In this document: positions 4,658-11,688 of the stretch, in pieces
Layout: each line of letters starts with the position of its first letter
Position numbering within the stretch: position 1 is the first letter of the stretch
Assembly: GCA_048938445.1 (NCBI GenBank)
Contig: JBHLME010000071.1
Span: 1 to 22,576 of the forward strand
From: Promethearchaeota archaeon
GTDB taxonomy: Archaea > Asgardarchaeota > Lokiarchaeia > Sigyniarchaeales > SOKP01
DNA length: 22,576 nt
Direction: 5' to 3'
Position numbers and translations under genes: made by a program
The notes under the pieces: model-generated
Told to the model about the DNA's origin: nothing
The model's database searches: none
The model's input: the letters and a program-made list of their open reading frames with translations, nothing else

Positions 4658-5077
4658 GTGAAAATAATGAACTGGAAAATAGATGAAGATAAACTTTGGT
4701 TCAAAAAATGGTGGCCTAAAGATTGTCCAAAAAACCTTCAATTTAATGAAATCACTTGTGGTGATTTTTTTGAAGAACAAAGATCTAAATATCATGACGA
4801 GATTTTTATGGTGTTTCTCGAAACAGAGATGACTTATGATGAGGCAGGAGATTATATTGACTCTTTAGCAACCGCACTTCATCGTTTAGGATTAAGAAAA
4901 GGAGATGTGTTAGCTCTTCTCATACCAAATTGTTTCCAATATGTTATCACCTTCTATGCTTGCATGAAAATTGGAGTAATTGTAGTTCCAATCAATCCAA
5001 ACTTTAAGAAAATCCAGATTCTAAGAATTCTTAAATTAACGCAACCTACAACTATTGTTACGGTGAATTATCTATAG
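4658..5077 (+). CDS. AMP-dependent acyl-CoA synthetase/ligase, N-terminal fragment ending at an in-frame TAG
   Basis: 'MTYDEAGDYIDSLATALHRLGLRKGDVLALLIPNCFQYVITFYACMKIGVIVVPINPNF' is the canonical N-terminal region of ANL-superfamily ligases. The fragment stops at TAG 5075-5077, in the same frame as the next ORF. The probable start is the ATG at 4667; 4658 is a GTG. Confidence 0.8.
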   Translation: MKIMNWKIDEDKLWFKKWWPKDCPKNLQFNEITCGDFFEEQRSKYHDEIFMVFLETEMTYDEAGDYIDSLATALHRLGLRKGDVLALLIPNCFQYVITFYACMKIGVIVVPINPNFKKIQILRILKLTQPTTIVTVNYL

Positions 5078-5122
5078 AAGGATATATTAAGAACTATCAC
5101 ACCACAAATAAAAGTAGATTTT

Positions 5123-6436
5123 GTGTTGCATACTCATATTTTAGATTTTGTAAAAAATAAGAGGGCAATACAACGAGAATATGGGAAAGTTCCTTATTCA
5201 AGAGTAGATTTTCCGAATGCTATTAGATTATTAGATCTTTGCAATTCATCCATAAAAGTACCAAACATAAATATTTCACCAACACAAGATATAGCGGTTT
5301 ATATCACTACTGCAGGTTCAACGGGAGAGCCAAAAATATGTGAATTGACACATTTTAATTTAATTGCTAATGCGAAACAATGTAGGTCTTGGTTAGGAGG
5401 TGAAGACCCCAGAATTGGTAATCTTGGTATTATTCCTCTATTTCATCCATTTGGCATGACTTGTATAATGAATACAACAATTGCATTGGGTGGTTTGATG
5501 TTGCTTTTTCCCACACAACCATCGAATGAACAATTAATCATAGAAATCCACAATGCCTATGCTCCAAAAGGTTTCTTGTTTTTTGGTCCCGAAATATTAT
5601 TCAAAAAGATAAATAAAGCCATCTCTTCAAATGATTACATTGATATATGGGAAAAAATTAAATATGGAATTGCAACCGCATCCCCTCTTCACACATCCGT
5701 TCAAAAAGAGTTTTTGAATAAATTGGGAGGAAAACTCGTTGAAAGTTATGGTTTAACTGAAGCAAGTCCAGTTATTAGTATTGGAAATTTAATTAATGAA
5801 ACTCGTGAAAATTGCTTAGGTCTACCTCTTCCAGGAACAGAATGGGGTATTTATGATCCGATTAATTTTGATATTGGACCCATAGATAAATATGGAAAAG
5901 ATAATATAGGAGAAATCTGTGTGAGTGGGCCACAAGTAATGATTGGATATTTAGAAAGCCTTAAAGCGACTCAAGATGCTCTTAAGAAATTTAACAATAA
6001 AATTTGGCTGCGAACGGGTGATCTTGGATATATGAATGAAGATGGCACGATCATTTTAACTGAACGTAAACAAGAAGAGAAGAAAAAAGTCAAAATAGGA
6101 GCTAGTTATCTTGTAGATGTGGAAAAATTTGTTTTACAGCATAAAAATGTAATTGATACTGCTGTTTTAGGAATACCTCCTGTAAATGATGAACCAGGAA
6201 AAATTACTAAAATATGGGTTAGTCTAAAGTCTGAGCAAATAAGTAATACAGCCGCTAAGAAATTTCATAATTGGTTAGAAAAAAATATGCCGGAATATAA
6301 ATTAGATACAGATATTGAATTTATTAAACCCCCATCCATATCAAAAGTTAAACCTGAAACTAAATCCGTTCTTGGTAAAATTCAAAAAGGTTCAGCAAAA
6401 GTGGGAAAACTTCCAGAGGCTAAAATACAAAAATAA
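5123..6436 (+). CDS. AMP-dependent acyl-CoA synthetase/ligase, C-terminal fragment (same frame as 4658..5077)
   Basis: 'TTAGSTGEPKI' is the A3 P-loop, 'ESYGLTEASP' is A5, 'LRTGDLGYMNEDG' is A7, and 'SVLGKIQK' is the A10 Lys. Both 4658 and 5123 are in frame 2, and the 45 nt between TAG and 5123 are open and read KDILRTITPQIKVDF. Confidence 0.85.
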   Translation: MLHTHILDFVKNKRAIQREYGKVPYSRVDFPNAIRLLDLCNSSIKVPNINISPTQDIAVYITTAGSTGEPKICELTHFNLIANAKQCRSWLGGEDPRIGNLGIIPLFHPFGMTCIMNTTIALGGLMLLFPTQPSNEQLIIEIHNAYAPKGFLFFGPEILFKKINKAISSNDYIDIWEKIKYGIATASPLHTSVQKEFLNKLGGKLVESYGLTEASPVISIGNLINETRENCLGLPLPGTEWGIYDPINFDIGPIDKYGKDNIGEICVSGPQVMIGYLESLKATQDALKKFNNKIWLRTGDLGYMNEDGTIILTERKQEEKKKVKIGASYLVDVEKFVLQHKNVIDTAVLGIPPVNDEPGKITKIWVSLKSEQISNTAAKKFHNWLEKNMPEYKLDTDIEFIKPPSISKVKPETKSVLGKIQKGSAKVGKLPEAKIQK

Positions 6437-9539: not shown

Positions 9540-9720
9540 ATAGCAAGGATATGATTTAAATTGGTATGATGTGCATGATACATCGTTTTTGTCATCACTT
9601 TGTCATCACAAGGTCATGTCATTCAGATGATTTCGTTCTTTTCCATATAATGTCTTGATAAATAAAAATTCTAATTGAAATAATTTAATCAAAACCATTT
9701 CAAACAACGTGGATGCATCA
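9540..9720 (-). ncRNA. Candidate omega-RNA (reRNA) scaffold / transposon right end of the TnpB element; boundaries not determined
   Basis: The position is the expected one. In IS200/IS605 TnpB systems the guide RNA scaffold overlaps the 3' end of tnpB and the downstream right end. The 201-nt non-coding stretch after the stop contains a tandem 11-nt repeat (GTGATGACAAA x2 on the tnpB strand, 9588-9609) and a small hairpin (9568-9584). No fold or covariance model could be computed. Confidence 0.25.
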
Positions 9721-11188
9721 CGGCATCCTCTATCCCATTTTCCGAAATGGCTTCTGGGAGTGCTTTTTTCATTATATTATAAGCAGCATTCACATCAGCA
9801 TTAATTACATGTCCCTTGGCAGTATAAAATAATCCTTTTACTCTTTTACCCTTGTATGTTGAATGCCAACAGATCTCTTCTCCATCTAAAAAACTACATT
9901 GGGATGTATAATTTTCTTCCTCAAGAATCACCTTTATACCGATGAGCTCTGCTTTATATTTCACTTTATTTATTAAACTCAAAAATGGAATAGACACAAA
10001 ATTTTGATTATTTCGCTTTCCCATATTTGAATTTTGCTTCCAACCAATATTATATCCAATAACAATCGTGCCAATATTATTGTGAATACAATGCTGAATG
10101 ACATTTTTGGATAATATATGAAATATATTATTTAATTTATTGTAGCGAATCAAGGATAACTTCATTAGTCGTCTTGTCCAATGTTTATATTTCTGCTTGT
10201 CTTTAGCGGATACTAATTTGCTCCGTCTTTTATTAAAATATTGGTTTATTGACTTCACAACACCACCCTTGATTATGATCGGTCTTGAACCGATATTATC
10301 TACCATGGTTATGATGTTTCGAACGCCCAAATCCATACTTTTAACTCTATCAGGATCTAATTCAAAATATTCTTTCTCCTTTTTATATACTATTCCTATG
10401 ATATATACTCCTCCTTGAGGTACTATTTCCACGAGGCTAAATTTTCCTCTGAAACGTGTTTTTATTGGTGGCAACCATCTCGGAGATCTTGGATTACGTG
10501 TATGACCTGGAAAAACCAAATAGCCATCACTTATTTTTGCTTGTTGATTGGTAAAATAAGCTGTAATCTCGCCATTTTTCTTTTTATAACTAGGAATACT
10601 TGGTTTATTAGAGTACTTCTTCTTGAATTCTTTAGGAGGCAATTGTTTTTTACTTTCATAATATTCTATTGTACTCTTACAATAACTCTCCCAATTAGTC
10701 ACTAATTTCATTAATACTTGTTGAGCTGATTGGGCAGGCATTTCCATATATTCTGGAGATAATTTCATCAATTTTTCCAATCTAGTATATGAAATGCGTA
10801 ACTTAGAATTAAAAAACCAACTCCAATCACTTTTTTCAGGTTTTTTTTCAAGCCTTTTATCTATTTTTTTGAGATACTTCTCTGAAATTCGGCAAACTTT
10901 ATCAAACTCCCGTGGGGATGAAATTAGATAATTTGTAACTTTTTTTAACCATTCTTCTACTAGTGCATGAGACTCACGAATCAAAAAGAAATAATGTCGT
11001 AGAACATAGTTTGCTTTATTATACAAGTTTTTCGATTTATAGCATATTTTTGAAAAATCTGGCGATGTTTTTACTTGTATTCGCTCTACTAAATGCATTA
11101 TTTCTATAGTATCCTGAACATCGTTTGAATGTATGGAACTTATAATCGTCATATCTTTCGTCTTATTAAATTTTAAATATTTAAACAA
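9689..11188 (-). CDS. tnpB: TnpB / IS200-IS605 OrfB-family RNA-guided endonuclease (RuvC-like), zinc-finger-less variant
   Basis: RuvC-I is 'SMDLGVRNIITM' (Asp codon 10331-10333). 'KYKAELIGIKVILEEENYTSQCSF' is the ..YKAE..G..V....YTSQ.C block. RuvC-III is 'INADVNAAYNIMKKA' (Asp codon 9794-9796). The track start at 11188 is a TTG. The ATG at 11152 (MTIISSIH...) sits about 29 nt downstream of a minus-strand TTTAAATA box and is the more likely start. Confidence 0.9.
   Translation of the reverse strand: MFKYLKFNKTKDMTIISSIHSNDVQDTIEIMHLVERIQVKTSPDFSKICYKSKNLYNKANYVLRHYFFLIRESHALVEEWLKKVTNYLISSPREFDKVCRISEKYLKKIDKRLEKKPEKSDWSWFFNSKLRISYTRLEKLMKLSPEYMEMPAQSAQQVLMKLVTNWESYCKSTIEYYESKKQLPPKEFKKKYSNKPSIPSYKKKNGEITAYFTNQQAKISDGYLVFPGHTRNPRSPRWLPPIKTRFRGKFSLVEIVPQGGVYIIGIVYKKEKEYFELDPDRVKSMDLGVRNIITMVDNIGSRPIIIKGGVVKSINQYFNKRRSKLVSAKDKQKYKHWTRRLMKLSLIRYNKLNNIFHILSKNVIQHCIHNNIGTIVIGYNIGWKQNSNMGKRNNQNFVSIPFLSLINKVKYKAELIGIKVILEEENYTSQCSFLDGEEICWHSTYKGKRVKGLFYTAKGHVINADVNAAYNIMKKALPEAISENGIEDAVMHPRCLKWF
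11178..11185 (-). promoter_or_regulatory. TATA-box-like element upstream of tnpB
   Basis: The minus strand reads TTTAAATA, matching the archaeal TATA consensus TTTAWATA. It is centred about 29 nt upstream of the ATG at 11152, which fits a leaderless mRNA. AT-rich background makes chance matches common. Confidence 0.3.
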
Positions 11189-11318
11189 AAATCTTTTTTA
11201 AAAAAAGAGAGAGGCTATAAAATTATTTGATATTTAAAGATGAAAAAAGATCTCATAGGTAGCGAGAAATATTGATAGACAGATTCTCAAACCTAGTAGA
11301 ATATTATAATTAAGAATA

Positions 11319-11564
11319 TTGATGATAACTTCAGGTGCCAAGACCATTGACGATTTCATCAATACTTATCAAGCACTAGCTGATGAAATGCGTGAATGGA
11401 AAAGGTTAGGAATTCAACTCGATCCTTGTAGCGGAATCGATGATGATTATGCAGAATTTTACACTATCAACAAGGAAGCTGCCATAAAAGCAGGGTTTAT
11501 TTACTGCAACTCTAAAGGAGATAAATTATTACTAACAAGATCAGGAAAAGAAGTATCATTGTAA
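11319..11564 (+). CDS. Small acidic hypothetical protein (80 aa)
   Basis: The composition is non-repetitive and coding-like (MITSGAKTIDDFINTYQALADEMREWKRLGIQLDPCSGIDDDYAEFY...). The real start is probably the ATG at 11322. The stop codon is embedded in a 10-bp hairpin. No family recognised. Confidence 0.5.
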   Translation: MMITSGAKTIDDFINTYQALADEMREWKRLGIQLDPCSGIDDDYAEFYTINKEAAIKAGFIYCNSKGDKLLLTRSGKEVSL

Positions 11565-11589
11565 GTGACAAAGGTTAAGTGTTACTTAC
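11561..11589. repeat. Inverted repeat / hairpin (10-bp stem, 9-nt loop)
   Basis: gtaagtgaca (11561-11570) pairs with tgttacttac (11580-11589) with one G-T wobble. The loop is aaggttaag. Confidence 0.6.
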
Positions 11590-11688
11590 ATATTACATTC
11601 CTCTAAAATAATATTTAGATATTATATTAATAACATAAAAAGAACTAGCTTGATCATAATAAACCATGGATAATAATACTGAGGTATT

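Follow-up and report, generated by a model that had tools for sequence, protein, structure and literature searches.

A relocated-glutamate TnpB in a candidate integrative element bounded by xerA-box-like sites in a Lokiarchaeon

How does a solo tnpB gene move when no transposase gene accompanies it, and what does its rearranged active site say about its history? These questions are raised by a gene in a 22,576-nucleotide stretch of archaeal DNA, hereafter the window. An earlier note on this DNA described an intact TnpB with a relocated catalytic glutamate in a putative Asgard host, assumed IS200/IS605-type mobility, and suggested a bearing on the origin of the eukaryotic Fanzor nucleases. The host is indeed a Lokiarchaeon (the XerA of a congener is annotated Candidatus Lokiarchaeota). 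We conclude, with a probability of roughly two in three, that the gene belongs to a non-autonomous 2.0-kb integrative element that carries tnpB and a cargo ORF, has ends of the tyrosine-recombinase-site type, and follows the origin and homing cycle proposed below. The features of the protein were already known, and the novelty would lie in the element, for which the evidence is comparative and drawn from sequence (Table 1).

Table 1. Features of the element, of its TnpB and of the chromosomal xerA site. Coordinates refer to the window unless a contig is named.
Feature	Coordinates	Strand	Basis or remark
tnpB, 487 aa, relocated-glutamate (RIIr-5/Ealt) type, long-insertion subclade	9689..11152	-	
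RuvC-I Asp274, within DLG rather than DPG	10331..10333	-	unchanged in 119 relatives
Gly366 at the canonical RuvC-II Glu position	10055..10057	-	AsCas12f and relatives alignments
Alternative catalytic Glu413, six residues ahead of leftover Cys419	9914..9916	-	relatives alignment; Ealt spacing per PMC10711439
Invariant Arg437, aligned with the TNB Arg of AsCas12f	9842..9844	-	AsCas12f and relatives alignments
RuvC-III Asp453 (NADxN)	9794..9796	-	relatives alignment
Subclade-specific 58-aa insertion in REC, helical by prediction	10805..10978	-	
TATA-like box, 26 nt above ATG 11152	11178..11185	-	common to several long-subclade loci
Cargo ORF, 80 aa, inside the element, divergent from tnpB	11322..11564	+	missing from empty sites; homologues elsewhere
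Left junction (attL-like): host arm, 6-bp spacer 11590-11585, element arm	11577..11598	-	
Right junction (attR-like): element arm, 6-bp spacer 9575-9570, host arm	9562..9583	-	
Accessory motif, 14 nt inside the left spacer	11563..11570	-	equal spacing at both ends and in L030 and L149
Accessory motif, 14 nt inside the right spacer, tandemly duplicated (11-bp period)	9588..9609	-	
Two covarying hairpins inside the tnpB 3' end, predicted 5' part of the omega RNA	9711..9759	-	
Predicted guide, formed by the target spacer and host flank (start to within about 1 nt)	9556..9575	-	inferred
Two tandem dyads upstream of chromosomal xerA	G000:C161:10163-10227 (L152)		

The minus-strand ORF 11188-9689 matches the profiles PF01385 and PF07282 and scores 151 bits against the guided_TnpB model NF040570, above the cut-off of 100. 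Every motif that had been quoted lies where it was placed: SMDLG at 10339-10325, IGTIVIGYN starting at 10075, EEE at 9922-9914 and NADVN at 9802-9788. Translation likely starts at ATG 11152, which gives a protein of 487 aa, and residues are numbered from this codon. In an alignment with AsCas12f, the glycine of the window TnpB falls exactly on the canonical RuvC-II glutamate, and the proposal of an intact, relocated-glutamate type is borne out by conservation: D274, G366, E413, C419, R437 and D453 are essentially invariant among the 119 relatives listed. Of the glutamate triplet, only the third member is conserved. This residue, E413, sits 47 aa past G366 and is kept in 11 of 12 long and 106 of 107 short relatives (the remainder are gaps), whereas the first two glutamates vary. 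The triad and the TNB arginine are invariant among long relatives at 52-63% identity; this arginine, R437, appears to be the equivalent of Un1Cas12f R490, and the TNB arginine with which it aligns is essential in Cas12f. The D-E(alt)-D set is complete, and we consider the protein to be probably catalytically intact. The structure model has an overall pLDDT of 83.7; it is weak in the finger remnant, and values in the TNB region are 55-65.

The zinc finger is missing as described, apart from a single cysteine (9898-9896), but its loss is not unusual, as a CxxC..CxxC finger is found in 0 of the 120 proteins listed (this TnpB and its 119 relatives). Similarly, no proline of a DPG motif occurs in RuvC-I of any of these 120 proteins. 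Proteins of this kind have been published as RIIr-5, TnpB2 or Ealt (PMC10691335, PMC10530073, PMC10711439). RIIr-5 is the largest rearranged TnpB group and is defined by the RuvC-II glycine and a compensating glutamate, and finger loss is reported for large TnpB branches (PMC10691335). DNA cutting has been demonstrated for an archaeal member, TvTnpB from Thermoplasma volcanium (PMC10530073). The window TnpB is, by its motifs, a new member of this relocated-glutamate group. Because the glycine and the finger loss are already published, and the protein has DLG, its active site is an ordinary feature that says nothing special about Fanzor.

The protein is longer than most, but the 90-100 aa N-terminal extension that the note had proposed does not hold in an alignment: the N-terminus accounts for about 18 aa, and the rest lies in three internal insertions, of 58 aa (residues 59-116), 9 aa (168-176) and 7 aa (220-226). 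The extra length is common to about 13 clusters in a search of 5.8 billion proteins. In a quick IQ-TREE search with a midpoint root and trimmed inserts, the long proteins form one branch (SH-aLRT 97) nested among ordinary 395-aa relatives. This subclade is rare: the window genome alone matches out of 161 genomes of the class, and no other species was found to carry it in the remaining 160 or among the best viral matches. Homologues from phages and gut metagenomes have the same layout, and the group covers bacteria, phages and archaea. A fixed partner gene upstream of long tnpB genes was considered and rejected, given that the small ORFs there are unrelated. A conserved tnpB-ftsZ linkage (L031, L032) was likewise rejected, because FtsZ is only 37% alike between the two and so does not mark one conserved locus.

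tnpB is a single-copy gene in the window genome (G000). A second, different TnpB is encoded there at L001:2908-4095 (G000:C11); this 395-aa protein is 35% identical, has a shifted glutamate and an intact CxxC finger, and its gene has different ends and no adjacent tnpA. In other genomes, multi-copy frames of 650-880 aa with a C-terminal part like the TnpB group are present (G007:C25, G011:C2 and G019:C378; L015, L018, L019, L146 and L147), and are possibly fusions or very long TnpB derivatives. Elsewhere in the window, at 4658-6436, an AMP-binding (acyl-CoA ligase) gene is split into ORFs of 139 and 437 aa, and the split is present in an independent Logan assembly as well.

The limits of the mobile unit are given by comparison of the window with three congeners that retain an empty site, in which a nucleotidyltransferase gene adjoins a gene for a 261-aa protein. 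The insertion spans 9576-11584 and includes tnpB and the 80-aa ORF. The same dyad form, two arms flanking a 6-bp spacer, is seen at the empty site and at each junction. At the right junction the spacer is that of the target. The left spacer differs from it at three of six positions, sharing the first two bases, yet about 20 flanking bases match the congener. Two other loci, L149 and L030, have the same 6-bp spacer at either end, and the spacer is thus duplicated. The 80-aa cargo protein has no family assignment and no credible fold match. A paralogue, 70% identical, is encoded at L002:2076-3750 (G000:C195), directly upstream of a DUF4379 protein with zinc-finger repeats and a nuclease-like C-terminus, and a third homologue is found in G015.

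Similar ends accompany the entire long subclade where this can be judged. A right-end dyad lies 38-113 nt past the tnpB stop codon in all nine testable long-subclade loci, and the best site score after tnpB has a median of 9.2 in these, versus 0.5 in 73 short relatives (Mann-Whitney p 2e-6, for kin that are not independent). The short relatives have a different end type, without a matching site just after tnpB. Seven of them (L040, L046, L129, L131, L134, L135 and L138) carry terminal inverted repeats of about 18 bp that end in GG/CC, which is unusual compared with IS605- and IS607-type elements, and another is preceded by a frameshifted remnant that resembles an IS607 TnpA by eye (L128:600-1003, G022:C54). 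For the long loci, a left end was not found in the 3.7-5 kb searched in L026, L029 and L031, and the contigs of L148 and L151 are short. The flanking genes of L026 and L030 are adjacent in the window genome, as expected of empty sites, although the DNA between them has diverged too far to be read. No other convincing cassette with the same ends was found in the window genome.

What, then, is the target dyad? Among 18 genomes from other genera, 17 carry a dyad of the element-junction form, 24-38 nt ahead of xerA. A site matrix was trained solely on such xerA-upstream sites of other genera, from three xerA-site seeds, with an 8-6-8 register that was picked after the TnpB ends had been seen. Among 9.24 million positions, this matrix ranks the left junction 3rd and the window genome's own xerA site 13th, and the empty sites of the congeners would fall within the top 9-15. 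Intergenic sites scoring above 14 number 25, versus about 11 in shuffles. The motif is AT-rich, and there are perhaps 10-15 excess intergenic copies per genome, unlike a single dif. The arms of the window sites also differ from those of characterised archaeal dif. The gene on contig C161 (10227-11147) is the single-copy chromosomal XerA (NF040815, 234 versus 220; 34 genomes have one strong match). Another member of the element family, L149, is inserted at the xerA dyad itself, directly upstream of a recombinase gene whose product is 72% identical to that of the C161 gene, and in G024 the same site is empty, with the same spacer and a neighbour that is 86% identical. By both the matrix and this L149/G024 comparison, the host Xer-linked site resembles the target of the element, and the dyad upstream of xerA is a candidate for a Lokiarchaeial dif or for an operator of XerA. 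Another dyad with a high score (15.2) is located at window positions 11606-11627, 29 nt outside the left junction; it is host DNA that is present in the empty site too.

As the note had said, the window contains no tnpA, and a search of the genome (assembly 96.5% complete) found none either, with no match to NF033518 or PF00239. Its inference that mobility must come in trans likewise stands, as the assembly contains neither a Y1 or IS607 transposase nor an intact recombinase of the element type. However, the ends have the form of tyrosine-recombinase sites, and the assumed IS200/IS605-type mobility can be set aside given the 6-bp duplications in L149 and L030 and the conservation of the host arm beyond the right end. 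Nor does the element show the GG crossover, the lack of duplication and the serine TnpA that characterise IS607.

A recombinase accompanies TnpB in cis at one locus. L032 combines a gene for an RHH/winged-helix protein, a 317-aa tyrosine recombinase that keeps its catalytic motifs, and a long TnpB, with ends of the same kind, although its left junction is cut off by the start of the contig. The window copy lacks a recombinase, and in L149 a broken stub of the RHH gene remains. The RHH-recombinase module also exists without TnpB in 10 of 161 genomes, often with a dyad just upstream. At L189:7392-14500 it resides within a primase-bearing element inserted beside xerA, and at L289:8734-18950 a 10.2-kb element is flanked by a pair of such sites with a single-base difference between their spacers. 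More generally, Lokiarchaeial integrative elements with RHH/winged-helix and tyrosine-recombinase genes and xerA-box-like bounds are seen at L189, L289, L186, L187, L274 and L275, and one of them carries a D5-type primase. In the window genome, L188:4046-4594 (G000:C208) encodes part of a tyrosine recombinase (182 aa, 31% like the one of the element) whose HxxR is altered; this is either a relic or a domesticated gene. XerA resembles the element recombinase at only about 27%, which does not account for a site shared by both.

The right end of the element also bears on how TnpB might be guided. Covariation in the predicted hairpins comes from nine loci, in a region that is itself coding, and an Rfam search of the omega RNA region returned nothing relevant. 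If the omega RNA extends to the right junction, then its guide would be the target's own spacer and flank (9575-9556), and the TAM would be the end of the host arm (AATA/ATTA). The element arm has C where the host arms, which end in TA, have T in nine of nine loci, so that the right junction would escape self-cutting. The idea that the guide serves to regulate another locus in the genome was rejected: the next-best match shows 4 mismatches over 20 positions, and the predicted TAM is missing there.

These observations can be assembled into a possible history and cycle. A relocated-glutamate TnpB from IS607-like elements would have been captured once by the Lokiarchaeial family of elements with RHH and tyrosine-recombinase genes, and deletion derivatives such as the window copy would subsequently have lost the recombinase. 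Integration and excision would proceed through a circular form, with 6-bp staggered exchange at xerA-box/dif-like sites. Since the window spacers differ at three of six positions, the exchange must tolerate heterology in this model. The catalyst would be either the host XerA, as in IMEX, which is the only intact recombinase candidate in the assembly, or a family recombinase in trans. By cutting an empty site, TnpB would favour restoration of the element, as has been proposed for IS605 and IS607, and thus the captured, catalytically intact TnpB may home into empty att sites. The fuller claim, that Asgard archaea combine an active RNA-guided nuclease with tyrosine-recombinase integration at XerA/dif-like sites, with the arm serving as TAM and the spacer as the beginning of the guide, is tentative, and we give it slightly less than even odds.

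Might the element be as described, but its TnpB be an inactive or immobile relic, or a protein that only binds DNA? The gene is present once, the assembly offers just the 182-aa fragment as a recombinase of the element type, and tyrosine-recombinase-linked TnpBs, which a published census records on at least three occasions, were all completely inactivated (PMC10691335). Moreover, an arginine before GLF, kept in 108 of 112 scored proteins, has been lost by a one-residue deletion. Together with the single copy and the 11-bp duplication in the right accessory motif, this loss indicates that the window copy may be decaying. However, the same deletion recurs in two other intact long relatives, and the window gene retains an open frame, D274, E413, R437 and D453, its promoter box and the RNA hairpins. 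We regard this explanation as unlikely. A different objection concerns the site. If the dyad were a transcription-factor operator preferred by an IS607-like or DDE-type insertion, then the 6-bp repeats would be target duplications. The motif does occur in several promoter regions, more distant members of the TnpB group adjoin IS607 TnpA, and an inverted accessory motif is common to both ends. Yet the ends of the element are themselves half-sites of that dyad, the same site delimits recombinase elements without TnpB, and a tyrosine recombinase gene is the sole mobility gene found in cis. Target duplication would also predict otherwise than a left spacer that departs from the target beside flanks that match it, and IS607 makes no duplication (PMC13565253). 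This account is quite improbable in our estimation.

Least probable is the original proposal that an IS200/IS605-type solo TnpB informs the prokaryote-to-eukaryote origin of Fanzor. The Ealt layout is common to TnpBs and Fanzors, the host is an Asgard archaeon, and Fanzor2 is among the fold matches of the model (Z 16.6, rmsd 4.1, 351 aligned). Nevertheless, ISDra2 TnpB is the top match (Z 21.3, rmsd 3.8, 312 aligned), the subclade sits inside ordinary prokaryotic relatives in the tree, and conservation between loci extends into the host DNA past the right end, a pattern not predicted by Y1 insertion. The published fingerprint of pro-Fanzors, which are cyanobacterial IS607 proteins, requires both DPG and Ealt (PMC10711439). 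The window protein, with DLG, no CxxC, no IS607 TnpA and a non-cyanobacterial host, fails this fingerprint, and the Fanzor link was rejected.

If the tyrosine-recombinase element is indeed coupled to an active TnpB, active prokaryotic TnpBs would work with a third mobilisation chemistry besides those of Y1 and serine transposases, and the element might be an archaeal IMEX capable of homing. Under the homing model, TnpB is expected to persist in every element with scarless excision, a property that tyrosine-recombinase elements have. The long subclade is a candidate counter-example to the census in which only dead tyrosine-recombinase-linked TnpBs appear. The element offers a predicted TAM, guide and target, and the analysis yields a candidate XerA binding site and an integrative element family for Lokiarchaeia that could serve as an Asgard integration tool.

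How does this arrangement compare with known systems? Like RIIr-5/TnpB2/Ealt proteins, the window TnpB has the RuvC-II glycine, an alternative glutamate about 45 aa on and six residues before a cysteine, NADxN, and a predicted omega RNA that overlaps the tnpB 3' end; it differs in its internal insertions and in the recombinase-type dyads that replace IS605 or IS607 ends. Pro-Fanzors and Fanzor2 share the alternative glutamate, but the window protein lacks their DPG and zinc finger, and resides in a Lokiarchaeal host without an IS607 TnpA. A Crypton-borne Fanzor is another case in which a tyrosine-recombinase element carries such a nuclease (PMC10711439, PMC13565253), but the link described here is an independent prokaryotic association with no sign of Fanzor ancestry. 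IS607-TnpB elements would resemble the present one in forming a double-stranded DNA circle with scarless excision that is compatible with homing (PMC10711439), and differ in their GG core, where this element has a 6-bp spacer and conserved target arms.

Closer parallels are found among tyrosine-recombinase systems. In the TnpBs associated with these enzymes (PMC10691335), a recombinase is sometimes upstream and att sites are present even without it, as here. Those proteins are inactivated, whereas here the triad is invariant and the predicted omega RNA would end at the att site. In the papers searched, no description was found of a tyrosine-recombinase-linked TnpB with an intact triad or at a Xer-like site, and no IMEX with an RNA-guided nuclease turned up there either. 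In IMEX (CTX, TLC and GGI), xerS/difSL and archaeal xerA/dif, as in the present system, an arm/6-bp/arm site is tied to a single chromosomal Xer, and in IMEX an element without a recombinase resides inside the Xer-linked site (PMC5357621, PMC8371274). The Lokiarchaeial elements depart from IMEX in having several secondary sites and in including autonomous members that bring their own recombinase.
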